Origin: Geodia barretti
Taxonomy: Eukaryota
Assembly (NCBI GenBank): GCA_030341885.1
Contig: CASHTH010003779.1
Coordinates: forward strand, 8,806 to 72,805
Direction: 5' to 3'
DNA: 64,000 bases
Positions 3,458 through 64,000 of this stretch are shown piece by piece. How positions within the stretch are numbered: the stretch's first letter is position 1; each line of letters starts with the position of its first letter. The position numbers were made by a program, and so were the translations under genes. Under the pieces are notes generated by a model. It did not search any database. It was not told the origin of the DNA and was given only the letters and a program-made list of their open reading frames with translations.

Positions 3458-3519
<62 letters not shown>

Positions 3520-6617: not shown

Positions 6618-8181
6618 GTAAACTGCACGCATCAACTGTTTTGGGAAGGTTTTTGCTTGGTTTTTGATTTTGCATGATCTATCATTACATTTTGCGCATG
6701 CACGAATCGATACGTCCCTTGTGGTCCGCATGCAATAGCATTAAAACTTCAAAACTCCTCTACTAGCTTAGCTGCAGGTGCTACGTGTAAACTTTTATGA
6801 ACAAGTATGGGTGTACAACTAAAGTATGAGTAGTGGGAGATGAAGGTCAAAACCAATAGAGCAATTTTCTCTGAAACGGGCTTTGTTGCAAGCTCAAGCT
6901 TGCAGATTAACGCATTAAAAATGCTTTCTCGCTACAAACATTGACAATTAATCCTGCTAGTGATGGGAAGGCACCCACTCTCATGGGAAGTAATTACAGT
7001 TGTCTGAAAGATCAAAAGAAATGACATCTCCCCGTTTTCAGCCACTTGAGAGGTTGGTGCTGTCACATCAAAGTCAGAGAAATAAATTGGATACTTGTAT
7101 ATACCCACTTGAAAGACTGCAGTCAGTCTAAGGCCACACGTTGTGACCTAATCCTCTGCAGTATAAACAGCACGCCCTTAGGGGTGCGACTAAGAGACCA
7201 TGAGGACCACTCCAAACTAAGCTGTGGCAGCTCTTATCCCACTTGAGGGAGAGATAAGGGGACGAGGGGCTGGCAGATGCTTGTCGGCTCATCTTTTCCC
7301 AGGACTCTGTAGCACTTGGACAAAGGGGAAGCGGTTGCTGTGGGTGTTTTGCTACCCGCAGAGTGTGTGGCTGTGAAAACTCTGGGGGGATACTCACAAT
7401 GAGCACTTGAGATCTCCTCGTAGACTCCTTAGGAGCCCTGCAACCTCAAATCCATGAATATGCTTGTTGGCCAGCTATATAAATGCCTTTGCTATAGCCC
7501 CACATATTCTGCTCTGGGAGTCAGCATTCTCTGTGGCCGTTGCTCTACTATGTTCAGACCAAGTTTCCCCTCCCCCCACCACCTGCTCCTAACTCCATGA
7601 TATCTTCTCTTGAAACCTCCAAAGCCACCACCATTACACATTTGAAAGGTGGGGATGTTGAATGCAAAACAGGCCTTTCATTGCTGCTTGTTGTTGGTGT
7701 AATGAAAGGGAAATGAAAAACACAGAGTTCAAAAGGAGTCAGGGGAAATGGTTATGTCACTAGCCATTGTGTGGAACATCAAAGCCTTGATGGAGTGGAT
7801 CATGTCCAGACAGTTGGGTGTCGATCATTTATCACCTCATTAGGAGTCACTTTGCACCCAGCCAGGGAGTGTGCCAGCTATATTTTAAGTGTGTGTAGGT
7901 GGTAGATAAGTGATAAAGTGATAGAGTTGTTACCAGCTTGTTTTCTTTGCAGGGGCGACCCTGAGTATGGGCGACCCTGAGTATGCAGCAAACATAACAA
8001 AATACGCTTAACAAAACGATATCTTCCATTTTCAGCAGCAGTCATCGAACGGCACTTAACAACTGCCCGAAGTTTTCTTCCAGTCCCACGCTGTGTTCTT
8101 TTCTAGGCCTACTAAAACAGTGCATTAGGTTTTTGTTGTTTCTGACGGGTTTACCTTTCACTGATATAACAAAACTTACCA

Positions 8182-9058: not shown

Positions 9059-9092
<34 letters not shown>
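9057..9092. repeat. (CA)n microsatellite
   Basis: Direct run. Confidence 0.95.
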
Positions 9093-9095
<3 letters not shown>

Positions 9096-9949
9096 CAGAG
9101 GTGGAAACAGCCGATGCATGCAGGGAGAGTTGGTCGACCACAAGTATTTCTTTCCCAAAGCGGGTCTTTGAGGTATATGGGTTCCTCAAGTGGCTCTTAG
9201 CTGGTGCTGGCCTGATGCACACCCTTGGCAGTGTCCCTGTAGTGGTTTGGGCTTGTCTGCCTCAAAAATGCCGTCAAAACTCACCACTGCCTCAGTAGTG
9301 GCTGGATCCATGACGGAGAGATATAACAGTACACACTCTTAAGGACGCTGTTCCTAGTAATGATGGTGCTCTTAAATAACGAACAGGGTCCCCTCCCTAG
9401 CCTTCGTTACCCTTTTTAGGGCACCTGTTAAGGGGTCAGGTGAAGGAATGTCACATTCTCTGGCAGAGCCTGTTTGGTGATGGCAGAACCAGCTCACTGT
9501 ACTATCTGGGCCTGTGGATCTTTGCCTGGGTAAACTATGGTCACAGATTCACAGGACTCTCTAGATGATAGGTGTGTTTGTGGCCCAGCAGCCCACTTGA
9601 AGCCAGAGTACAAACTCGTCTGGAGTGAGTGCTGTGTAAACACAGCGTGGGAATGCCCGGCCCAGCAAGTGCCCAAGGTATTGTGCCTCAGCTCAGTTTA
9701 GTAGTAGCAGCCCCACTGCAACTTGGAGGCATCTTAGCACCAAAAGGTAAGTATATACTGTGTCCTGCCTTGCCTGGGCTTGAGAGGAATTTCCAGAAAT
9801 GGAAGAAGTTTACAAGTACCTAGGATCAGTTGTGTGTGTGTACACATGCATAGTGAAAGGACAATGGTGCCAAGCCCGTGACAGGGTTTCTAGTGCATAG
9901 AAGAAGCATGTGATTCATGCTGATGAGATTCCGCTCCTCCTAGAATACC

Positions 9950-10121
9950 AATCTTCATGCCTGGCTCCATTTGGCGGGTATGTCTTGTAAGGGAGTGGAC
10001 CACAGCTGAGTTGGCCCAGCGTCAGTCTCGCTGCCTGCGCCACTTAGTCCACTCTAATCTCCACAAGCATGCTCTTCACATTTCCCGACCGCCTCTTGCC
10101 AAGAACCTGAATTCCTCCTTC
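9950..10121 (+). repeat. Dispersed repeat copy A, about 170 bp. It is the inverted partner of 17348-17520.
   Basis: The string 'atgcctggctccatttggcgggtatgtcttgtaagggagtggaccacagctgagttggcccagcgtcagtctcgctgcctgcgccacttagtccactctaatctccacaagcatgc...cccgaccgcctcttgccaagaacctgaattcctcc' recurs as its reverse complement at 17348-17520 with about 2 mismatches. Confidence 0.85.

Positions 10122-16573: not shown

Positions 16574-16600
<27 letters not shown>
16574..16600. repeat. (TG)n microsatellite, with a (GA)n run nearby at 16756-16787
   Basis: Direct runs. Confidence 0.9.
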
Positions 16601-17347: not shown

Positions 17348-17520
17348 GAAGGAGGAATTCAGGTTCTTGGCAAGAGGCGGTCGGGAGATGTGAAAAGCAT
17401 GCTTGTGGAGATTAGAGTGGACTAAGTGGCGCAGGCAGCGAGACTGACGCTGGGCCAACTCAGCTGTGGTCCACTCCCTTACAAGACATACCCGCCAAAT
17501 GGAGCCAGGCATGAAGATGG
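17348..17520 (-). repeat. Dispersed repeat copy B, in inverted orientation relative to 9950-10121
   Basis: Reverse complement is about 98% identical to copy A. Similarity ends abruptly at both edges. ORF 17204-17512 (-) is a translation of this repeat and is not a gene. Confidence 0.85.
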
Positions 17521-19550
17521 CATTTTACAGATGCAGGCTAGAGGATATAATAAATAAGAGGGCCTAGCTCACTGGAAAAGGAGATCTCAGCGAATCCGAT
17601 TTTATTTGTACCACAGACTATTGTGAGCCAGGAAACAATGAGGGGACAACTGACAGGGAGTGAGGTCCCTCAGCACAAGGCAAGTCCCAGACCCCAGACC
17701 CTACATTCCTGACAGGATGCCTGATGGTCAAGGCCACAATGCAGGCTCCCACAGCCAGTGTACATTGACCCGTTACCCACAGCCAGGGTCTGCCCACCCC
17801 TCATTGTGGAGACCTGGCTAGGAGTGGCCATATTAGACCACAGATGATCAACATTCCACAGGTTACTCAGCCCTTCTGCCCTTCACCCTCCTTCTCCCTT
17901 CTCCCTCACCCCTTGAGGTCCCTCTCCTGTTAGTCTACAGCCATTTGTGTGTTATCTTTCCTGCAGCTTGCAGGGAGTTGTTGTTCTGCTGTAGCTACGC
18001 TAACAAGGACACCATACACCAGTACAGCCGCAGTCCGCACACCTGGCCTATCAAGCTCACTGGGTGGAGGTGCTGCACAAGCACTCGTAAGTAACAAATC
18101 TAATCCAAGTATACACACACTGAATTAGTTTAGACTGTAGTATCTGGAGAGCCACGAGATAAGTGTTTTCATTCATAATGCAGCGTCAGTATAACGTAAA
18201 CGTATTGTACATCGATACACACAGACAGACGTGTACAGTGTGTGTGTGTGTGTGTGTACATATACAGATGAGCTGGTAATCTAGTGTGATGTGTGCAAAA
18301 TAAAGAGTGGGTTTATACCCACGACCTCTTGCACTAAGTATTCTCCAAGTGTCTGTCCACTTGACTGCTCCCACCTGTGGCAGGTTGGCAGCTGGCCTCC
18401 GTCTTCAAGAGCACCTGAATTCCTCCGCTGGCAGAGCCCAAACCACTGCCCCCGAACGCTGCCAAGGAGACAAATGCAGCCTACGAGTCCACCCAGTGGA
18501 GAACACCTCCGCCTCTGTACTGCTGTCTCGCGCGCGCATGTAGCGGCGGTCGCAGTTTGCTGGCAGGTTCCCCTTCCTGCCCCTTAGTTTTGAATGCAAA
18601 TCAAATTCTCGTTCCAAGGATGGTGTGGGAGCGCTGTGTTACATATGGAAGAGAGCTATACATCCCAGAATGCTCCCATTAGTCCAAACACTCTGCGGAA
18701 TTCCACTAAAACACTCTATCTTTCATTTCGAGCTCAAATATAGTGGAGCTGGCAAGACTACAATACAATACGGAATATCATGTATGTATGTATGTTTGTA
18801 TGCCCACTGGCATGTAAGTGTTTGGCTTACAAGAGTGAAGCAATTGTCGACTGCCAGCATCACAATGTCAATTGGAGTGGTGTGATTAGCAACCACCACA
18901 CTCCCACACTTTGCTCTGTTCTGCCTGCGAGAAGAAAAAAACGCAAAACACACAAAACCATGAAAAAGAGTCGGATTATTACACCTGAAACAAAGGCGGG
19001 CCAGCTGAACCGGATATTATATCATTTTTTAGCTCCGTGTCAATGCACACGTGGTAGCTAAAAAGAGTACGATCAACCAGCTATACACCTTGGCTCCATG
19101 TTACACTAATTGTATATGGAGAGAGTGCTACTAGAGTATAATATGTGTATGTAGTATGACAAGGAGAGTGGTAGGTAGGTAGGCATACACACACCTGGAT
19201 ACAACGAGTGCATCGTGTTTTTGCTGTGTACCGCCACTTAAAACACGATGCGGTCTCCATTTCCCCCAACAAACGTTTGCACAAAGAGAAAGGAGCGCGG
19301 CGTGAATGGGCTGTTTCCAAACGGGCGCCAGGTAATGGAGTGGCAGCGTCAAAGGTGAATGGAGGCAGGCTAACTCGGCGTCTTGTTGGTCCAACAAATG
19401 ACCAATGTCATGAGGCAAATCGGTGGGTAGACCTAGCAATTCTCCACTTCCACAAGCTACATCTACACCATATGCCTGTCTGGGCATTCGGGACCCAAAA
19501 CCTGATTATTAGAGGTCCCCGTATTAGCAGAGGGAAAGCAGTTTATACAC

Positions 19551-28187: not shown

Positions 28188-31100
28188 CTAGTGGGCAAGT
28201 GGTGGGGAAAGCAAGGTGCCCTGTGAGGCCTGGTATACGTTGAGTGGAGTCTTGCCATCCGTGATCAATGTGTTCTGTATTCCCAGACCTTGGAGCAGCT
28301 GCATCTGCAGAACATGAGAATTGCATCAGCCAGTACTACGTTGCCCTCCAAACCAAACAACCCCTAAACTTCCAGGCCCCTATTGAGTTGCATCACAGCC
28401 ACCTACACTTGCCCTCTCTCTGAGAGGTCCACAGGTCAGTACTCCAGACAGTACACTGTACCCACCTTTGCCTGGGGTCCAGCTTTGGCAATGGTACTGA
28501 TCGTGCTCTGACCTATGCAATCCACCGTCTTTGAAAACTTTTCCACCTGTGCAGCAGAGAGGGAAAAACTGACGGGCCAGGTGCAAAACCTACACCCACA
28601 TTTCAGTTGTACAAGTGTGGGCAGGTCCACACAATGCCCAGCTCCCTCCCAGCATTGTGTGCCCTTACAAGCTCAGGAGGGTTGCAGACAAATCACCCAA
28701 TCACCCAATCACCCAATCACTCACGTGCTCACCTCAATATTGCCCAGTTCCCTGGCCCTGCTGGTCTCCAGTTCATTCTGTTCCTTCAGGAACTGGATCT
28801 CTGCCTCCCTGGCCCTTGTCTGGCAATCCAGCTCTGCATTGGTCTCGATACGCGCAGCTTCCGCTTTCAATTCTGCCACTACACAATAAAACACGCGAGG
28901 TGTGTGGTGCAGGTGTGTCTGCATGCAAATCCTTCACTAACAAGCCCTCGACAAGACCCCGAGTAGGTGGATGTAAGGATGCCCCCCAATACATGAACCT
29001 TGAATAATACAGTGCAAGTCTTAGGAGGTGGTCTGTGACCTACTAGCCATGTGTTTGAAATTGTATGGACTGAGAGCAGACAGTGCCAGTGGTACTGGGC
29101 AATGAATGGAGGCATTTGTCTGACATTCACACCTATCCAAGCACATTCAGCGCCCGCTAGAGGCTTGCTCGCGAGCTAAACAAGCTGATGGCAGCCTCCC
29201 GGAGGTATGGGGTGACCGCAGCGGCACACACACGCTGGCAATTGAGTTATGCGTTTTGACAGCGCTGTCAGCCACATTCTCACATCAACTGCAACCCTTG
29301 ACTTCAGCCTGGCATGGCAACAGCAGATCTGGCTACTCTCATACTATCACCTTAGCTCCTTAGCTGCTCAGCATTTATTATCACTCATTCTTACAGGGGC
29401 AGGCAGTGAACCACCTCATAAACTACTTACGTACGTATATTGGCATGTGGAGAGTAATGTCGATGTAAGAATACAGGGGCGATTGAAAAGACCCTCACTT
29501 GATGTGCACACATGCTACACCGGTAAACACTAGAAACACTGGTAGTGTGCAGATTACAGCTTTCCTTGTTCTGACCCGCACCACCCTCTTTTCACCGAAA
29601 CGACCCACACACAAAACGTGGATTAATCCACCGAGCAGGTGCAAACTGTACTATACTAAAGTGAGCACAATGCCTTCCTCACCCACGCAGCAGGTTAAGC
29701 CCTTCAGGAGGACAGCAGAGTAACAATTGCATATTATGAGACTATTTGCTGTGGGCTTTGAGCGAGGTGGTACACATTAGGAGAGTGGGGGAGTGAGAGT
29801 TGCCTCACATTCAATAGCACTCTGTCCCTCAATGAGCAGTCTCTCAGCTCTTGCCTGTGCCTCTGCCTTTGACTGGCCCGAAGACTCCACAGCCGCAGCC
29901 ACCGCCTGCAGCTCTAGCAGAGTGCACCGAGCCTCCTCTGCTTCCTGTACACACGCACACAACCAGGCGAAAGTTGAAGACACACAACACAAGAACCGTG
30001 AATGTATATACAGCGTGAGCCCACAGGCCAGCCAAAACAGAGCGCTCGGGAGATAATGCGTGGTTTTGGTGCAGGCAACCACCAGGTCAAAACAAGTGAC
30101 AGACACGTTTTTCTGCTTGCAGCTGGCTCCTCTGTGTCCTCGTGCAAACGGCAGGACACTTGGAGCCTTGCCAAGTGATCAAAAGTCGGTCTAGACTAAA
30201 GATCATGCATGCTGGATTGTTTTGCATACCAGTATCAAATGCCTTCTTATGCATACTATTTGAATATACATCACCTTCTCGTTTTGTAGCTTTTGTCTCT
30301 CCAGCTCTCCCTTTGCCTTCTGTTCAGTCCTCTTGGCCTCATGCTGTGCTGCACGCTCTATGGACCTGTTGTATCAACATACAACGCTAACCCTCTCAGC
30401 TATGGTGTTATACACACCATATGTAGGCATGTGTATGTATACAGTGCACGAGGCAGTATACCACAAATGTCTTTTGTTTCAACTCACATCATGCTGGCAC
30501 CAGACACTGAATTATCGAACGGACGAAACTTAACATAATAATAATTATGCTGCCCTACACTGATTAATGATGAGTAAAGCAACCCCCCCTTAATTAGAAC
30601 TTGGTCGAGACAAATTACCCACCATATGCTGACTGCCACACCGGCCACAAACCACTCATAATGTATTGAGACAGTGGAACCAATATACTGTACACAGCAT
30701 GTGCTATATACATGTTTGGAATGCCGCTACTATGAGAAGAGTTTACACACACGCCGGTCCTTATCAGAAATGAGAACCGTCCAGCTAAACAGGCATGTAA
30801 TGAAAGGGGTGGGGCTAACTTGGTGGAGATCTCGATGGCCATCTGGACAGACTTTGACAGACTGTCTCGCATCTGCTGGTCCACTGGCTCTATACTCTGA
30901 ACATCTATATTGGTGATCACCTGTGGTGTGTGTGTGTGTGTGGTGTGTGTGTGTGTGTGTGTGTGTGTGTGGCATATGACAGAGAAAACAAATGCAGAGA
31001 GCTCAGAAGTAAGAACAATCCTGAGCAAAGTGTAGACTGGTTTTTCCACCACAACAATGCATTTTTAACACCGGTACCCACCTCCGAATGCTATGTTGAT

Positions 31101-46252: not shown

Positions 46253-48198
46253 ATGAGGATGCGATCAAAACTGGTGAGTCCTCCAGAGCTGCTGCGGGCT
46301 TGTCACTCTGTTCGATAGCTACCTGCGGCGTAGGCTGTCGCTGACAGACCTGAGTGTGAAGGTTTTTTTGAGTATGATTTTTTGCCAGCTCGTATATAAA
46401 GTGGCTATCAGTAGCTGCTATATATGACTATTAGCTAGTACCCTAGAACGCCTTCCCGCATGTATAGGATTCTGTTTATGTCCTGCTGCAGTATCCAGTG
46501 CCAAGAAAAGATAGTATCCCACTAATCATTGCCCTCAATAACAATTAAGACTTTTGGTACAGTTCCAAGTGTTGTATCCATCTACAATAGAGGTTGTTGC
46601 TGGGCGTGTCTTCAGCAGTACTGCTAGTCTGCCTGCTACATTTTCTACTTGCGGCACAAACCAGCCAACACTTGTAAGAAAACTCAATGAAATTTCTGCC
46701 TAATAACTGCTGCAATTCATTCTGTCCCAGGAACTCTCAAATTGCTATCATTCCTCAGAAAAATCAACAGCCAAGATTCACGTAAGTGAAATAAACAGTA
46801 CTGCATTGGAGTCAACAGAAATTGTATAGTGGACGTGCTGTTCTTGGGGAAGAGAGCCGCACTAAGGAGGACAATACCTCTAGACTGACTACAAACCAGC
46901 AACGAAGGCCCACACAAGTAACAGAGGAGCACTTAGTCAGAAAGCCACAACTTCATGTAGAGTAAGTGCTGTGTAGTATAGTACTATTTTCTACAAGGGG
47001 TTATATACATTATGGGGACCTTTTAGGTATAATGCAGGTCGAAACACTACTAGAAGGAAGTATTTAAGACGCCCTCCAGATATTCCGGACGAGGCAATGA
47101 TGGACAACGACTCTCCATGCAATTCAATGCGGTATGTATGTAACAACATTACTGTTTTTGGGTCATACCATAATAACTTTTCATCTTAACCAGGAAACAG
47201 GCTAGAAGGGCAGCCATCATAGACAGCATAAACAAAGAGAAGAGCAGGCGGAGCGATGTGGAGAGGATGGATGGTCAACCAGACGACCCCTACCTCCGAC
47301 ACAATCGCCTTAATGGCTACGGTCTTCTGAGTGAAAGAGACGTCGAAAGCATCGAGGCATTTGTCTTCTTTGTCGGGTGGCAGAGGAGCGGTCACAGCAT
47401 CATTGGCAGTCTTCTCGACGGCCACCCTGATGTGGTGATAGCACACGAGTTCCTACTCTTCTCCCACCTTCACGAGTTCACGAAAAAGAGACAGAATCAG
47501 AAGGTGTCCCGGAAGGTACTGTTCAACCAGCTTGTCGCCAACAGCTTTCGCAATGCTCGGTACGGGGAGAGGTCCTTCTTTCGTAACGAGAAGGGATACA
47601 ACCTGAAACTGTCCGGGTCTTGGCAGGGCTGTTTTCGGAGCCTGCGAATCTGGGGGACAAAGCTGCAGGTGAGGTGACAAACATGTACAGAAAGAGCACC
47701 ACGGATTTCGTTCGTCACCTCAGCAGCCTCCGATCGCTAGTAAACCTCCCACTGAAAGTCATAAACGTGATCCGGAACCCGTACGACATGATTGCAACAC
47801 TCTCGCTCTACCGCGGGTCCCCCATTGAAGACGTTAAGGTAAATGCTTCAGTGGGACACAAGTACAGTAACCAGAAAGTCATCCGCGGGGCAGCAGACAC
47901 TATACTTACAAAGGCCCACTACCTGCACATGATGTTAGGGGAGGACTACGATTGGGAACTGATTCAAATCCACTCGGAGGACTTTATCCGAGATCCGACA
48001 GCAATAATGACAGAAATCTGCAGTTTCCTTCAACTAACATGCACCAAGGACTACCTCGCACAGTGCGCCGACAAGACCTTCAAGTCGACGTCGAAATCCA
48101 GGGAAATGATTGAGTGGGACCCTGTAATAAAGGCACAGGTTGAGAACTCCATCCGCGAAATCCCATTTTTTAGGCGCTATTCATTTGACAGTGACTAG
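46253..48198 (+). CDS. P-loop sulfotransferase-like gene (PAPS-binding motifs). Multi-exon: exon 1 is about 46253-46273 ('MRMRSKL|gtgagt'), an internal exon is about 47047-47131, and the large 3' exon is about 47193-48198. An apparent +1 frameshift lies at about 47600-47690.
   Basis: The 5'-PSB-like motif is 'FFVGWQRSGHSIIGSLLDGHPDVV' (compare 'GVKKGGTRALLE'). The 3'-PB-like motif is 'VINVIRNPYDMIATLS' (compare 'RDPxxRxxS'). The product ends '...IHSEDFIRDPTAIMTEICSFLQL...PFFRRYSFDSD*'. The two halves are in different frames (ORF 47258-47677 versus ORF 47620-48198), and no credible GT-AG intron joins them. Confidence 0.55.
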
Positions 48199-53650: not shown

Positions 53651-54176
53651 GTTCCGGATTCCGTCCTCGCATCGAGACCAGGAACTCGCATGGCTGATTT
53701 AGAGGAGGAATTGAGGGCACTTGTAAAGTTGCCTCACTGTTTTTTGTATACCACTTATTATCTATGCACAGGGAGTAGGTGGTGCTAGTTCTGCAGGAGG
53801 AGTACCCTCAACTCGAGCAGAAGACTATTCCAATTTCGTGAGTGGCATCTACACCTCCAGACTCAGCATTTATATTCTCCCTAAAGGGTGGCTTGGAGCA
53901 GGCATGGGCTCTAAAGGCCATCCATTACGCCGAGACTCATTTCAAGGTTCGGCGTTGTGTTGAGTTAATGTGGCCACCCCAGCACGGCCTATTCTGTCAT
54001 TCCAGCTGCTCCAGAATGTGGACGCAGCCAGCCTGACTCTAACCAGGTGCCCTGATACCATTGACTGGTGGTGTTCCATGTATACCTAGACTCCTATGGT
54101 AGACAAGATGAGGACCTGTATCAGGAATTCCAAAAGAAATTTAAGGGGTTGCAGGTTAGGGTCAGTTTGTATATAC

Positions 54177-54305
54177 CTTCCCTCCATCTCCCCTTCCTTC
54201 CTCCTCATCTTCCCTCCATCTCCCCTTCCCTCCATCTCCCCTTCCCTCCATCTCCCCTTCCCTCCATCTCCCCTTCCCTCCATCTCCCCTTCCTTCCTCC
54301 TCATC
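54177..54305. repeat. Minisatellite with a 15-bp unit (ccttccctccatctc), about 8 copies
   Basis: Direct tandem copies. ORFs 54068-54340, 54086-54304 and 54096-54320 are translations of it. Confidence 0.9.
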
Positions 54306-54900
54306 TGCCAAGGTCGATAAGATCAGTCAAGATGACTTGAAATCACCAGAGGCGAAAGAGGTCCACTAGCTATAATTATAGCATGGCATTCCAGAGTGTT
54401 ATTGGCTTTACTACAGAGGTGGAGAAGTTTCTGCAAAGACTTTGAAGGAATTGTCAAAGACTACAACTACGGGACCCTACTGAGGTTGGGGGGAAGCTTT
54501 ACTGGTTGAAGTTTGTATCTCCAGCCATAATTGTACTTCACAGATTGGACTCCTCTCAGGACTACAGCAAAGAGAATACTATATTGGGTGCAGACCCTCA
54601 ATTATTGTAGCAATTGTTTACCTTTTTTCATTTTTCAGTTCCTCGAGTACAGTTTCTGGCGGTGGAGATTTCAAGGAATAGACTGGGGCTCAATTCTGTG
54701 CACTTTTCCCCACAAAGCTAGCTAGGGCTGTGTATTTTAGCAGAGGTGTGTTTACTGTGCGCATGTTGATGCTTGCCCTCACTAAGTCTGAATGAGTGAA
54801 TGTGTGTGGGTGTCTTGCGTGGGAATAGCTGTTTCTCGATCTAATGCTCTTGGAGTTCATAACTAGCAAGGCCGGTTCCGTGCATATCAAGTTGTTGAAA

Positions 54901-56803: not shown

Positions 56804-58397
56804 ATGGAGAGGCTGGCTGTTCTCTTGACACTGGCTGTGGTCAGTATTGCATGTGAGTATATCTCTGTGTTATATACGATGTATGTAGCTCCCACTGTTG
56901 TGCAGTTGTGGAGTGTGGTAGAACTGAGAGGTGGTTATGGCCAAGAGACCTGGAAGACCTCGGTAGTGGCTCTGATAACTATGAGTCTGTCACCCCAGCA
57001 TCTCCTGAGTCTTCAACAAGGACCACAGAGTCTCAAGCAGCAACTCTCGAGGCCGAATCATATCCTAGTTCTTTTCAGATGATTACATCATTCCAAACAA
57101 CTTCACTACCTTCAATGATGGCCAAAATAGAGTTCTCTTCTGCCATGCCACTGTTAGCTACAAGGCCCTCTTCAGTCACAAACAGCACTGAGATGCCTGA
57201 AGCAACTTCAACACTTTCCATTACAGCCACACCGGTTTTCTCTAGCAGACTAACGTCTGAGATATCGGCCACAGCCACTACAACATATTCTGGAGTCAAA
57301 ACCATTAGTTTCCGTACAACCCCACAACTTGAGAAAACTTCACAACTCTCTGTGGGAGTTGCACCATCCTCTACTGCAGTGATACCCAAACTAACACCAG
57401 AAGTACTTGGCACTGGAACATCTTCTGCTGCTGCCACATTCCCCCTCTCTGAAGTGACAGTGATATCTGGTGAAGAAAGCCCCAGACTGGTCCGCTCTCT
57501 ACCTCTCTCAACCTCTGCCCTGCCAACCCCTTCTCTCAAAACCAAACTAGCTCACATCGAACTGACACCCACAACACCACCAGAGGGGGTACACACTTCT
57601 CCACTCAGCTTCAAATCCCTGGCAACTGCAACTCTCCCCTCACTGCTTCCCAAATCATCCAACTTTTTCACCTCTACTCTCTTCCTGGCTGCCGGAGGGG
57701 GTGGTGCTGCAGCCCTACTCCTGGCGCTAGTTCTCCTGGTGTCAGTACTAGTTGCCTGTAGGAAGAGAATGAGAAGAAGGTGTCCCTGCTGCAGGACCTC
57801 TCACAAGATTGAAGGCCCCATCATTTCAGTCTCCTATCGCGGCTCAAACCAGAGAGAGAGGGAGAGCTACTTCATTAAGACTAATGAATTGGGTTCCACC
57901 TCTGCCTTTACCACACGTCGGGGAGAAGGCGACGCCAGTAAAGAGTTTACGACATTTTTCACCACTCCGTCTTTCAGTGGGCCCAGCAGCATGCCTCCTG
58001 CAGATCCAGTCACATATGATGCGGATCCATTCACTAATGTAGAGCCACCAGTGACACACTATGTGGACCCAGTATCAAGGGATCATCAAGAAGTGAAGAG
58101 TGTAAAGTTCAAGAGTCTTGAGAGGAGCTGGAAACTTTCTCCTCAACATCAGGTATGCCATATTACATGGCTAGCTCACACTCAGTGTGTTATTCTCTCA
58201 CAGAGAAAAGAAGGAGGAGAAAGAGGGGAAGTGGAGGACATTGATGATGTAAGGAACGCTTACTGTGTCTTTATGCCCGTGTGATCTTGTGTGTGTTGTA
58301 TGTGTGTTTGTTACAGGACTTCAGACTTTCTGACCTAGAAAACCTCGAGAAAGTGTTGGACAGTGCTCTGATCCGGTTTGAAACATCAACGCTCTAG
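56804..58397 (+). CDS. Mucin-like type I membrane protein. It has a signal-peptide exon at about 56804-56856, a large Ser/Thr-rich ectodomain plus transmembrane exon at about 56889-58152, and a short 3' exon. Unknown family.
   Basis: 'MERLAVLLTLAVVSIAC' looks like a signal peptide. The large exon is S/T-rich ('...TESQAATLEAESYPSSFQMITSFQTTSLPS...TSEISATATTTYSGVKTISFRTTPQLEKTSQ...'). It includes the helix 'GGGAAALLLALVLLVSVLVAC' and the stop-transfer 'RKRMRRRCPCCRTSHK', then a cytoplasmic tail. The terminal exon is 'DFRLSDLENLEKVLDSALIRFETSTL*' (about 58316-58397) or alternatively 58201-58284. The exon 1 donor is ambiguous: the strong GTGAGT donor gives the wrong phase and the weaker GTATAT donor gives the right one. 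Confidence 0.4.
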
Positions 58398-58577: not shown

Positions 58578-61500
58578 TCAGACGACGGTAAACATGACAG
58601 TACGGCGGATTCTCCTCACACAGTTGTCCCCATTGGGCCTCACCTTCACTCTGTGTTCTCCCAGTGACAAGTTCTCATACTGTACTGTCCTGTCACCTGT
58701 GTGATGGACAAATTAGGGGTAACTGCAGATATGGATGAAATTGTATAGCTGTTCTAGTAGAGATGTACAGCTATCTCTTTGTACACGGCACATTTCTGTG
58801 AGTCTTACTCACATGGCGTGAAAGTTCCGCCATCGAGTTGGCATTCGGTGGAGGTGGTAGGACCGACCACTGAGAAGGCAATGAACACGTCGCCCTGGAA
58901 CACCAGGGCCCCTTCCACACCATTCAGGAAGTTGACTGAACAGTCTCCGCTGAGTCCTGCAGTCAAAGAGCAGCAACACACATGCAGACTGAGCTACAAT
59001 ACAGCAGTGGGGTTGTTGCTATTACCTAGCCGGATGGTTCTGGAAATGAAGGCGACCTGCTGCCCCTGCTGGTTAAGGGCGGCAATCTCCAGAGTCACCG
59101 GAGGGATACGGCTGGGTGCTAGTCCAGTGACAACAAACGTCCCAGAAGAGCCTGTTGAAGGTTAGCAGTTATCTCGCGTACTGTGCTGGAGGTAAAACCA
59201 AAACTCACAGTCTTGCTGAGGCGCAACGTCGCGAAGGGTACACAGTGCGTTGGTGATGTCGGGGCTCAGAGTGAACTGCACTCTCACGGTCCCTGTCCCG
59301 CCCTCTAGCCTCACTTCAGGTGTGCCGTCCACCAGTACAATAATCCCAGTCTCAATCGGAAACACTGCCAGAGAGAGAACCACATTCATATACGGTGAAA
59401 AACCTCTGAATGTAGGACACTTTCAAGGTGTCCCTTAATTATTATTGAGAGGTGTCAACTGTATGAGCCATGGGTGTATTATGCAAGGTTATGCAACACC
59501 CAGGACCACACTAAAGGAGCTGTGAATAGTATAGAAGTGACCATCTCACTGTCATCATTGATGATTGTGACCACTGCAGTGCTCCTGTCAGGGATGAGGG
59601 CTACTCCGCTGGGTCCAGAGAGCTGGAACACAATGGTCTCATCCGGCTCGTCTATAGTGTCTCCGTTGATGGTGTAGAAGACTCTTCTTGGATTGTCGGA
59701 GTTGATGTTGAATTGCAGGACCGCCATGGAATCAGTGAAGTCATCATTGACTGAGAACGAAAGAACGAGAAAGAGATAAGACATACCCTGTACTATCAGC
59801 TGGCTGCCTGTGGCACAGGAAAGGTACTATATACTTCTCTTGAAGGGAATGTGTCAATAGATAAGTAAAAATGTTCAATGGGGGGCCCCAAGGAACACTT
59901 TCTTGATTTAGCCCTTATCTACTGCCACATTCCCTTTAATTTCAGATTTACGGTAGATTTGGAGTTGTCACCAAGTATTGATTACCTGTAGCTGTGCCTC
60001 CTGCGACAGAGACACTCAGTGCAACGGGCTGTGTTATGCGCCCGTTAACAAAGGCCCGTAGCCTGGCGCCTGTGAGACCGTCTGTCTCGGGCTGTCCAAC
60101 ATCAGTCTGCACGAACCCAGCACTCAGACTAGGGTCTGTGTAAGAAGAAACAAAGTGTTGGTGTCTACGTACCCAATTCAAGCTGCAGCAAATAGTCTCA
60201 CTGTCATTGTCAACTATGATGATGACTCCAGAAGATACGATGAAGGAAACTGCACTATCTGACGAAGTGAGTGTAACTCCAAAGAGCTCGATATCTTCGC
60301 TGAGTGTGTCGTGAATGATAGTAATGTTCTCGCAGATGATGACCTCTTCTATAGGTGAAAAGTAGGTGATATCCATACTCTCCCTGATATAATCCACATT
60401 TTCTGTTGATCAAAAAAGAAACAAATCGTCAACAGCTGACCGAGCAATAACTGACTGGGTAAGGAAGATAGACTGAATCAGTTCTCACCTAGTGCTGCTC
60501 CAGTTTCGATGGTAGTAAGGGTGACAACGGCGTCTCTATTGAGGTTTGAGCCGACAAGATCGACACACACGGGGAACGTCGAAATGCCTTCGTCCGCGGC
60601 CATTATAGGCTCTTGTAGGGTCACAATCAGCTGTCCATCTATACAACATCAATCACACAATAATATCTTGTACCACCCTTGGTTCAGTAGCAATGAGGGA
60701 AAAGCAGGTTTTTTTAGTTTGATGCATGGTCTACAATGAAGCCGCAAGCCAAAGGCAAGCCAAACAACACAACTGGACATATGAAATGGTCTTTGGCTGG
60801 AAAACTTCAGTTACCTTGGTCCTGGAGGATGTTGACTCTAGACAGGGACCTGAAGAAAGGGAGCGTGCTGCCTGAGAGGAGAACCGTGAACGACTCAAGT
60901 GGCTCTCCCATGGAATCGTCGATCAGATCAATCTCGACGCATTCCCGAAGATCATCTTCGGCAAACGTGAGGGTGACGGTCCGAGCAACATAGTCAGACC
61001 CAGCTGGGTTGGAGGCACAATGATATGGAATGAGATAGATGTCAGGAGGTGTGGGTGTGTTGTTACCTGTGGCAGTCCCATCTGAGGTGGAGACAGTGAC
61101 CACCACTCGAGAGGACACCTGTTGTGTGAGAGAGACGCACACTCTCACTGCCTCGTCTTCCTCGCTGACTGTGTACGCAGACAGCTCCAAGCCAACACTT
61201 GCACCAACTACAGCCACTGGATATAGCGTATCATACATATCGTGTGAAAAGGTGGACATTAAGAGAGAGTATTGTGTAAGAACACCTACCATTAGCAATT
61301 GTAACAGTTGCTGTCGCCATATCTCCAGTCATGGTGTTGGTGAGAATCAGTGTAAACTGCTCATCTCCTTCAGTCAGTGAATCGCTATTAGTACTGATTG
61401 TCAGGAATACTGGGCCACTGAAGACAATGTCTTGATTGATGGCAGTAAAGTCACCAACAGCTGTAGGGGAAAGAATGAGTTGATTGCCTCCACTTGTTAA

Positions 61501-64000
61501 TGGATATGCATACATGTAGCAGTTCCATCCTGAGATCTGACATTCAGTTGGAATGGTCCATTCTCAAAGAGTCTGTTTGCCACAACAGACACTGTCAGGC
61601 TAGCTCCCTCGTTCACAGTGTAGGCATTCTGGCCAAATCTGAACTCCACAGGATCTGCAGGCGTGGGGGAAGTACGTGAGCTTAAAATTATACTGACACA
61701 GGCTCTGCATATTAACCATTATCCCTGATAGTGACAGTGGCTGTGCGTCCAGTGCTGAGACGAAGGGTCAGAGTCTCATCGTTTTCTCCAATCTGATCAT
61801 CAAGTATGACCAGATTCACACACATTCTGGTGGAGGCTCCAGCAGTGAACGTCACGGAATCACTCACACTACTGTAATCTCGACCAGCTGTAGAACAAAG
61901 GTTCATTCAAGTATTTCCTCTGCTACAGAACTACTGCAGTTTACCTGTGGCGGTGCCTCCTAGTTGGTCTGAGGTTACAGTCACTACAGTGGGCTGACTG
62001 ACTGTCCCACTCTCCAATACCACACAAATTTCGACTCTTCCATCATCCTCATCAAAGACAAATAATTGAGGATTCTCAAACCCAAATACTGGACCCTGTA
62101 TTATGTCTATAATGGTGACAGTTGCTGTTGTCACAGCTCCAGTCATGGTGTTGGTGAGAATCAGTGTAAACTGCTCATCTCCTTCAGTCAGTGAATCGCT
62201 ATTAGTACTGATGGTCAGGGACACTGGGCCACTGAAGACAATGTCTTGATTGATGGCAGTAAAGTCACCAACAGCTGTAGGGAAAGAATGAGTTGATTGC
62301 CTCTATTATTTAATGGATATGCATACATGTAGCAGTTCCACCCTGAGATCTGACATTCAGTTGGAATGGTCCATTCTCAAAGAGTCTGTTTGCCACAACA
62401 GACACTGTCAGGCTAGCTCCCTCGTTCACAGTGTAGGCATTCTGGCCAAATCTGAACTCCACAGGATCTGCAGGCGTGGGGGAAGTACGTGAGCTTAAAA
62501 TTATACTGACACAGGCTCTGCATATTAACCATTATCCCTGATAGTGACAGTGGCTGTGCGTCCAGTGCTGAGACGAAGGGTCAGAGTCTCATCGTTTTCT
62601 CCAATCTGATCATCAAGTATGACCAGATTCACACACATTCTGGTGGAGGCTCCAGGAGTGAACGTCAGGGCTTGAAACACACTAACATAATCTTCATTAG
62701 CTGTACAGCAAGGAGACAAAGTGTATTTTGTATTCACTAGTTTCTTTTACAGATCTACTGCAGTTTACCTGTAGCAGTGCTTCCTGATTGGTCTGAGGTT
62801 ACAGTCACTACAGTGGGCTGACTGACCGTCCCACTCTCCAATACCACACAGACTGGGACTGTTCCAGCATCCTCATCAAAGATAAGTTCCCCAGGATTCT
62901 CAAACCCAAACACTGGTGGATCTACACAGAGATTGTTTGTAGTTTAAAGAGGAAAATGAGGAAATAGGAAATATCAACTCACCTTGTCCATCATCATCAT
63001 TGATGGTTACGATGGTACTGGACTGGCCAAACTCGGGGCTGAATATTTGCATGGGAAACCTCTCAGTTTCCTCCTCAATGTCATCTCCCAAGATGGTCAC
63101 ATTGATACACATCCTGCTCTCTCCAACATTGAAAGTGAGCGTTTCAAGAACTCGCAAAAAATCTTCATCCTCTACACAATGGAAGCAGTGCATGAAAAAA
63201 CTCAAAAAGTTTTCCGTTTAGCTCATGTCACTGTACCGGTTGCACTGTCAGTGAACTGAAACGAAAATGCAATGGTAGTGATGCCGTTTCTGGTGACGGG
63301 GGTCTGGGATATCACACAGACAACAAGGATCTGACTGGAGTCTGTCTCAGTCACGGCATAGGCCGATTGCTCGAATGACAGCATTACTGGTCCTGCAGGT
63401 GTTTCAATTGAAAAAAGAAAGTGGAGAAAGTGCATAAGCCAACTGTTAGATGACTGGAATTGAAGTGAACATGCTCTATCTACCTATGGCTGGTATGCTA
63501 TGAACTATAATTCCATGCACAAAAATGCCGCTTGGCCACGTCTGGGCGTTAGTTAGTGGCATCTCTAACCTTCATCGTTGCTGAGTATCGTCACGCCGGC
63601 CATGGAGTTGCTGAGTGGTTCTCCCGACAGACTCTGGAGGTTGATGGAGAAAGTCTCTGGTTGCTCACTCAGATCATCGTCCACTATTACTATGTCCACA
63701 CACATCTCCAGGTCACCAGAATTGAACACAAGTGTCTGGGTGGTGCTGATGTAGTCAACAGCATCTGGAAGAAGGGGGAAATAATAGTGTTTTTGTTTGT
63801 GGTGTGTGTGAGTTGTGTAACGGGAGGGTGTGGGAGGCTGGGGGAGGCTTACCTTGAGCGCTCCCATCAGCAGTGCTGACCTGGACCATAACTCCGTCCC
63901 TCTGCAGAGGTCTGTCAAGACTGACACACACTCTGACAGTGTCATCTAATCCCTCAGTGGCAGTGTACTCCTGTGGATCAAAGCCAACCTGAACCACATC
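58578..64000 (-). CDS. 3' portion of a very large secreted or ECM-type protein made of tandem Calx-beta-like domains. More than 20 exons are visible and the gene continues beyond the window end. It ends in a distinct C-terminal domain.
   Basis: Repeated Calx-beta signatures (DY-x-motif, T-F-x-x-G-E, I-x-DD-x3-E-x-(D/E)-E-x-F-x-x-L) appear in ORFs 63565-63945 ('DAVDYISTTQTLVFNSGDLEMCVDIVIVDDDLSEQPETFSINL'), 62900-63205 ('EDEDFLRVLETLTFNVGESRMCINVTILGDDIEEETERFPMQI'), 62525-62737 and 61712-61906 ('DYSSVSDSVTFTAGASTRMCVNLVILDDQIGENDETLTLRLS'), 61931-62224, 61231-61515, 60807-61298, 59948-60397 and 59479-59784 ('FYTINGDTIDEPDETIVFQL'). The C-terminal exons are at about 59000-59160 ('TFVVTGLAPSRIPPVTLEIAALNQQGQQVAFISRTIRL|gtaata'), about 58805-58950 ('GLSGDCSVNFLNGVEGALVFQGDVFIAFSVVGPTTSTECQLDGGTFTPC|gtgagt') and about 58578-58705 ('...QYENLSLGEHRVKVRPNGDNCVRRIRRTVMFTVV*'). 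Confidence 0.7.
61298..62935. repeat. Intragenic tandem duplication. Two copies of about 819 bp (61298-62116 and 62117-62935), each spanning 2 exons plus introns of the Calx-beta gene.
   Basis: Long near-identical blocks cover exon and intron alike. One example is 'ggtgttggtgagaatcagtgtaaactgctcatctccttcagtcagtgaatcgctattagtactgat...gggccactgaagacaatgtcttgattgatggcagtaaagtcaccaacagctgtagg', including the intron 'gaaagaatgagttgattgcctc...taatggatatgcatacatgtagcag', through '...catattaaccattatccctgatagtgacagtggctgtgcgtccagtgctgagacgaagggtcagagtctcatcgttttctccaatctgatcatcaagtatgaccagattcacacacattctggtggaggctcca'. ORFs 61712-61906 and 62525-62737, and ORFs 61231-61515 and 61931-62224, are near-identical pairs. 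Confidence 0.85.

Follow-up and report, generated by a model that had tools for sequence, protein, structure and literature searches.

The stretch of DNA analysed here (the window) covers 64,000 nt of the demosponge Geodia barretti (contig CASHTH010003779.1, positions 8,806 to 72,805 of the forward strand), and all coordinates given below refer to this whole 64-kb window. Its last part carries, on the minus strand, the 3' part of a gene coding for an array of Calx-beta domains, and inside this gene lie two adjacent copies of a module of four exons and two Calx-beta domains, here called copy B (upstream) and copy A (downstream). The gene was compared with contigs of metagenome assemblies (L003, L004, L011, L013, L014, L019 and L020), which come from five further ENA samples and two pipelines and were retrieved by exact-sequence lookup of a 75-aa open reading frame (ORF) over exon X11 and a 97-aa ORF over the junction between the copies. 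These comparison haplotypes are short-read assemblies with ~4-6x coverage. A 486-kb ENA contig, L010, which is ~90% identical to the window and syntenic with it through beta-TrCP, served as outgroup (OUT).

The gene model was built by hand from position 64000 down to a TGA stop codon at 58580-58578. All introns are bounded by GT and AG and measure 52-235 nt, phase 1 was found in 20/20 of them, and the internal exons are all multiples of three. The resulting ORF is uninterrupted over 1183 aa, only the last part of the protein lying within the window, and contains nine stretches matching Pfam PF03160, Calx-beta (E 3.8e-134, 440 bits against a gathering cutoff of 27). Each Calx-beta domain is spread over two exons, split after a conserved G-T-A-T motif, and the boundaries between domains also bear an intron. 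This splice model is supported by P0001/L002, an intronless cDNA-like contig from a JGI transcriptome, since it is colinear with the spliced model, at 51% identity across 391 aa, over six predicted exon joins that are free of gaps. P0001/L002 then enters a retained intron (GTATGT; L002 1330-1389) at the position between exon 3 and exon 4, which indicates that the position of this intron is conserved in the homologue. The contig was used solely to back the exon joins; its use as an orthologue from a related species was abandoned because it shares its JGI sample with a sulfotransferase transcript 97% identical to the window, so that P0001 may be a paralogue.

Upstream contigs supply 6-9 more Calx-beta domains, which brings the protein to ~15-18 domains, with 15, 18 and 19 domains inferred in three contigs; the "giant protein" of an initial annotation of this DNA was therefore an overstatement. 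A candidate signal-peptide first exon, judged by eye and kept separate from the model, lies at 271-462 of L011 and starts with MEKRRGMQSLLQVLTAVLLVCGRGTHG. The gene is a secreted-type Calx-beta array. Its C-terminal tail has more than 2000 relatives, among them Ig-like repeat proteins of the Big_13, Big_7 and Y_Y_Y types.

Table 1. Positions of the Calx-beta array gene, its duplicated modules and related features in the window.
Feature	Position	Strand	Remarks
3' part of Calx-beta array gene	58578..64000	-	21 exons in window; 5' end beyond window
Copy B (upstream module)	62111..62921	-	two Calx-beta domains, 4 exons and 3 introns
Exons of copy B	62921-62769, 62700-62530, 62467-62327, 62274-62111	-	B1, B2, B3 and part of B4
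Junction filler ATAGACATAATACAGGGT	62093..62110	-	18 nt, in frame as IDIIQG
Copy A (downstream module)	61290..62092	-	two Calx-beta domains, 4 exons and 3 introns
Exons of copy A	62092-61945, 61887-61717, 61654-61514, 61460-61290	-	part of A1, A2, A3 and A4
Perfect block in copy B	62342..62655	-	end of exon 2, whole intron 2, most of exon 3
Counterpart of this block in copy A	61529..61842	-	putative donor
Strongly diverged 5' third of copy A	61843..62092	-	exon 1, intron 1, first 45 nt of exon 2
C-terminal tail, exons X11-X14	58578..59364	-	181 aa, no Pfam match of its own

The two copies lie head-to-tail, differ at ~70 sites and have distinct flanks. Alignment of 62111-62916 with 61297-62092 by blastn gave 91.1% identity across 810 nt, a repeat search of the window placed the copies at spacings of 813, 814 and 824 nt, and comparison of the whole window with itself showed this to be the sole long DNA-level repeat in the 64 kb. 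Tandem Repeats Finder reported no repeat, which is due solely to its upper limit of 500 on the period. DNA similarity between the copies continues beyond the exons and through the introns. The initial annotation was thus right in placing a tandem duplication here and in describing it as a duplication of DNA that carried its introns along, but wrong about the unit, to which it gave two exons: the unit comprises four exons, of 153, 171, 141 and 171 nt, and three introns. What it took for two types of domain in each copy are halves of domains, since PF03160 matches four stretches in the 425 aa of both copies together.

At the junction, the homology of copy B ends at 62111, 7 nt before the end of exon 4 as seen in copy A, and that of copy A begins at 62092, 5 nt inside exon 1. 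The 18-nt filler between them lies within a fused exon of 330 nt (62274-61945), and this is the only domain boundary of the model without an intron; a hybrid intron is absent from the junction. The net change amounts to +6 nt, and the reading frame is therefore kept. The string of the filler is present in all seven comparison haplotype contigs and absent from L010, and showed no significant similarity to the upstream or downstream flanking intron. A junction with lost ends and a filler looks like a non-homologous or replication-based join, and unlike a crossover between homologous repeats. Such a non-homologous join would have united the copies while deleting 7 nt of exon 4, the inter-module intron and 5 nt of exon 1; it would have left the 18-nt filler behind, and the fused in-frame exon would add two domains to the chain. 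An origin by unequal crossover, as first proposed, is not indicated by these features. The expectation that the frame would be retained was correct: exons are multiples of three, introns are in phase 1, and the haplotypes of the window, L003 and L014 all have an unbroken ORF and no damaged GT/AG site. To judge from the sequence, both copies are probably expressed.

The identity between the copies is far from even. Exon 1 is 84% identical and intron 1 only 56%, with an 11-nt indel, whereas intron 2 is 100% and exon 3 99% identical; intron 3 and exon 4 stand at 91% each, and exon 2 at 92%, with its differences all within the first 45 nt. Three zones can be distinguished, which are 74%, 98% and 77% identical, and the central, near-identical zone measures 520 nt. 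In the first zone, synonymous divergence (dS) is 0.20 and nonsynonymous divergence (dN) is 0.22, and in the central zone synonymous divergence is 0.03. Over the 266 alignment columns of the strongly diverged 5' third of copy A, with gaps counted as mismatches, identity with copy B comes to 74.4%. The Jukes-Cantor distance is ~0.44 for intron 1 and 0 for intron 2 (Fisher p = 1.3e-7 for the contrast of the two introns), and the longest perfect run, of 314 nt, was reached in 0/200000 permutations of the mismatches, among which the maximum was 165 nt. A single recent duplication cannot produce this zoned pattern. The earlier statement that the copies are more than 90% identical over exons and introns therefore holds for the overall figure (91%), but not for each part, as intron 1 and exon 1 demonstrate.

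Comparison of haplotypes and of a related lineage, which the initial annotation had suggested, found both copies in five further samples and one copy in L010. Both copies are present in L003 and L004, which match the window at 99.0% over 6.5 kb and, coming from separate assemblies, agree with each other at 99.985%. L014 (98.7%), L011 and L013 span the junction, and so do L019 and L020. The junction is thus present in five samples other than that of the window, which means that the second copy is no artefact of the window's assembly.

The same haplotypes showed that the perfect block of 314 nt is not a constant feature of the pair. Within this block, copy B departs from copy A at 14 or more sites in L003/L004 and in L019/L020. 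At 14 sites it is the copy B of L003 alone that differs, while copy B of the window, copy A of the window and copy A of L003 agree; copy B of L019 bears the same type of variant in the block as that of L003. At 5/14 of these sites the state of L003 copy B is that of the outgroup. The state shared by copy A and the window's copy B is therefore derived, and the window's copy B acquired it from copy A. In the window, the block is a tract recently converted from A to B, and individuals vary in it; the converted copy B is carried by the window, L014 and L011. In copy A of L014, intron 3 and the beginning of exon 4 are of B type, a conversion in the opposite direction, and L003 shows a third sequence type in both copies at the intron 3/exon 4 region. 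A count in which 39/39 polymorphic sites match a paralogous base was dropped, since any ordinary new mutation arising in one of the copies would meet it trivially.

Copy A hardly varies from haplotype to haplotype. Between the window and L003, copy A differs at 5/796 sites and copy B at 30/806; copy B reaches 3.8%, as compared with 0.4-0.6% for the flanks (Fisher p = 1e-8), with 15 amino acid differences in module B. The L003/L004 haplotype also has a polymorphic in-frame insertion of 3 nt close to where exon A4 ends (L003 ~2860; window ~61322), which adds one codon. Exchange of sequence between the copies by gene conversion has recurred and has run both ways, and different individuals carry different mosaics. 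Their near-identity stems from this continuing exchange of sequence and not from a very recent duplication. The conservation of the introns had been taken as a sign of recent duplication, and this did not hold up, given distances of 0.44 for intron 1 and 0 for intron 2 and a perfect block that is absent from the copy B of other haplotypes.

We therefore read the locus, with a probability of about 0.8, as a genuine intragenic tandem duplication of a four-exon module with two Calx-beta domains, later homogenised by gene conversion. Several points weigh against this reading. The comparison contigs are low-coverage short-read assemblies, and some variants could have been assigned to the wrong copy or the wrong allele. 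In two scaffolds (L011 and L019) the near-identical core of copy A is interrupted by N gaps, and copy number may be above two. The very unequal divergence of the first 290 nt of copy A is unexplained by conversion between A and B alone. Finally, protein searches returned no transcript of the gene itself, and the duplicated and downstream parts gave only Calx-beta matches of 25-41%, which were mostly bacterial, plus P0001. A metagenome scan found one unrelated locus only, at 37% identity, and JGI sample 3300047102 held no near-identical transcript of the Calx-beta gene, though a Geodia very close to the window's species is present in it.

In L010, positions 7279-8090 align to both window copies and hold one copy of the module, without filler. 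From exon 2b through exon 3, A and B are ~4% apart in their least-converted alleles, and these are 7-8% from L010. Across exon 1, intron 1 and exon 2a (the initial 45 nt of exon 2), divergence is 19-25% between A and B and ~7% between B and L010; within those 45 nt of exon 2 alone, A differs from both B and OUT at 14/45 positions and B differs from OUT at 0/45. Relative to the outgroup, 32/41 fixed A/B differences in the 5' third are derived in copy A, intron indels included. A relative-rate test with P0001 counted 7 vs 6 changes and was uninformative. The duplication may be younger or older than the split from the L010 lineage, and both histories fit these numbers.

In the first history, which we consider quite possible at slightly under even odds, the duplication followed the split from the L010 lineage, and the 5' third of copy A, beside the junction, would then have undergone a burst of change, owing either to error-prone repair synthesis at the time of the duplication or to a patch copied from an unsampled paralogue. 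The single copy in L010, the small distance between the least-converted A and B as compared with that of both from L010, the predominance of A-derived changes among the fixed differences and the untemplated-looking filler at the junction all agree with this sequence of events. It does, however, require change to be in eight-fold excess in a single third of a single copy, and in the intron as well, and no donor for the diverged patch of copy A was found in the window, L003, L004, L010 or the P0001 cDNA.

The second history is only a little less probable than the first. It makes the duplication two to three times older than the L010 split, with one copy lost from L010 through an unequal crossover between the two, and with an older long conversion, followed by the recent ones, having homogenised everything 3' of exon 2a. 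The divergence of exon 1 to exon 2a would then be clock-like (~19-25% between A and B against ~7% between B and L010). The copy in L010 resembles B at its 5' end and A at its 3' end, which fits this history, but an unduplicated ancestor would look the same. Conversion is demonstrably frequent at this locus, and the homogenised core lends itself well to deletion; the price is an additional loss event and an additional old conversion.

A homogenised duplication is to be preferred to the single recent unequal crossover of the initial annotation, in which the copies would be more than 90% alike since little time has passed. The overall identity of 91%, introns included, and the single-copy state of the module in the related contig L010 would suit such an event, but the sharp mosaic (56% in intron 1, 100% in intron 2, a 314-nt run seen in 0/200000 permutations) contradicts it, copy B lacks the perfect block in two other samples, where the variants are partly outgroup-like, and a junction with filler and without homology is unlike a crossover between repeats, which makes this explanation very improbable. 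Weaker still is the proposal that assemblers or polishing made the second copy or the mosaics: the near-identical core of 314-520 nt does exceed short-read length, the L011 and L019 scaffolds break at the core with N runs and the published G. barretti assembly was Pilon-polished (PMC10542158), which is relevant if the window comes from it, but the ~70 A/B differences and distinct flanks, the junction string and copy order in five other samples from two pipelines (which refute it as to the existence of two copies), the 99.985% agreement of the separately assembled L003 and L004, and a divergent copy-B core sharing outgroup states that chimerism among A-type reads cannot yield leave it hardly credible.

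The suggestion that the repeat array is still expanding found support in the form of copy-number change between lineages, as L010 has one copy of the module and a 1.79-kb repeat of its own. The latter lies just upstream in the same gene, beyond the end of the window (2831-6808 of L010), and consists of a 1787-nt tandem unit with four Calx-beta domains, present in 2.2 copies that are 99% identical. The equivalent four-domain block is found in two copies and an N gap in L011 (3237-5377) and in one in L004 (2612-3128), a difference that reflects either copy-number variation or assembly collapse. At the upstream edge of the window, domain d1 (exons X1-X2, 63570-64000) has 48-61% protein identity to L010 3696-4090 and 5479-5873, and domain d2 has 83-87%; d1 would be hypervariable, or else a non-orthologous domain that replaced the original one.

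The window is gene-dense, and the 58 kb downstream of the Calx-beta gene hold a mucin-like gene, beta-TrCP, a sulfotransferase, the major vault protein (MVP) and other unrelated genes. The MVP exons (28-35 kb) are essentially identical to the NCBI entry "Major vault protein [Geodia barretti]", and the GC content of the window, 0.46-0.53 in 2-kb bins, agrees with the 49.3% of the G. barretti genome. Convergent to the Calx-beta gene at its 3' end is an open frame of 475 aa from stop to stop (56857-58281, plus strand), Ser/Thr-rich and mucin-like, with one transmembrane stretch and a basic cytoplasmic start. The sulfotransferase gene (47177-48195, plus strand) has a short intron near 47.6 kb that is spliced out in the JGI transcript P0186 (L021; 97% identical), and this identity marks JGI sample 3300047102 as a transcriptome with a Geodia very close to the window's species. 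An inverted repeat pair of 180 nt (9941-10121 and 17348-17527, 97% identical) flanks an NK-class homeobox gene (12.8-13.9 kb) and may represent two copies of a small mobile element. Intergenic positions 54176-54309 hold a minisatellite-like array with overlapping self-matches at offsets of 32, 48, 64 and 96 nt, and (CA)n and (GA)n microsatellites occur, for example, at 3460-3505, 9060-9092, 16574-16600 and 30930-30971.

Two general principles provide a frame for the duplicated module. Under Patthy's rules of exon shuffling, to which PMC5400394 also refers, symmetrical phase 1-1 exons permit the duplication of exons or modules in frame. The Calx-beta gene fits this picture in that its exons are multiples of three between phase-1 introns, so that any whole-exon block could be duplicated in frame, but its breakpoints lie inside exons and a fused exon was made; intron phase did not guarantee the frame here. 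Concerted evolution by gene conversion between tandem paralogous segments is likewise a general phenomenon, and the sharp-edged mosaic, the tracts of a few hundred bp, the exchange in both directions and the raised allelic diversity in the acceptor copy are all of this kind. Set against conversion in general, nothing at the locus is unusual; the partners are two modules in one gene, 815 nt apart.

The closest parallel is found in the aggregation factor (AF) genes of demosponges. In Amphimedon queenslandica, the repeats of AqAFC each hold two Calx-beta domains, comprise introns as well as exons and are ~85% identical (Grice et al. 2017, PMC5400394), and introns of AqAF genes are in phase 1 in 154/155 cases (PMC5400394). 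The Geodia gene is, like AqAFC, a demosponge Calx-beta array gene with two-domain, intron-bearing repeats (91% identical) and short phase-1 introns (20/20). The two differ in that AqAFC has three units, not all of them adjacent, whereas the Geodia gene has two strictly adjacent units and a fused exon; a Calx-beta domain of the AqAFs is spread over three exons, and that of the Geodia gene over two. The allele-specific conversion tracts of the Geodia locus are undescribed for AqAFC. In addition, AqAFs end in a Wreath domain and lie in a cluster of AF genes, neither of which is seen in the Geodia window: unrelated genes, and no AF gene cluster, occupy the 58 kb downstream. The Wreath domain has been reported only from demosponges, and its last two exons average 523 and 336 bp (PMC5400394). 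The 181 aa of the Geodia tail are distributed over four exons of 119-156 nt, and these small exons, together with the broad Ig-like relatives, argue indirectly against a Wreath domain in the tail.

Calx-beta domains range in number from 3 to 15 in MAFp4 isoforms of Clathria prolifera (PMC5400394) and from 1 to 66 in Halisarca AFs (PMC12749355). The Geodia gene resembles these demosponge AFs in its variable number of Calx-beta domains (15, 18 and 19) and in its high polymorphism between individuals, and differs from MAFp3/p4, the introns of which are in phase 0 and not in phase 1. It has the traits of AF Group 1 in being a demosponge gene with several Calx-beta domains (nine in the window) and a strong phase-1 bias; it is at most a candidate member of this family. 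A bolder reading is that the module pair serves as a built-in generator of diversity in a putative AF-like protein of adhesion or self-recognition, so that conversion between modules would reshuffle variants and individuals would carry different versions of module B. The 15 amino acid differences between the window and L003, a dN close to dS in the diverged part and the gain and loss of two- and four-domain blocks are the grounds for this idea, which we regard as unlikely.

If the gene belongs to the AF or allorecognition system, its allele-specific mosaics would be one source of individual-specific variation; otherwise they represent routine evolution of a repeat gene, which matters for annotation (the fused exon and the domain count) and for quality control of assemblies at this locus. 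The pair also serves as a caution that percent identity is unsafe for dating duplications of this kind. The locus works as AqAFC does, and the duplication of a block is ordinary for such repeat genes. What it adds to the known cases is the allele-specific conversion tracts and the fused-exon junction, and with them a checkable example of how long Calx-beta arrays of sponges grow by block duplication at the DNA level, with their copies kept alike by conversion.

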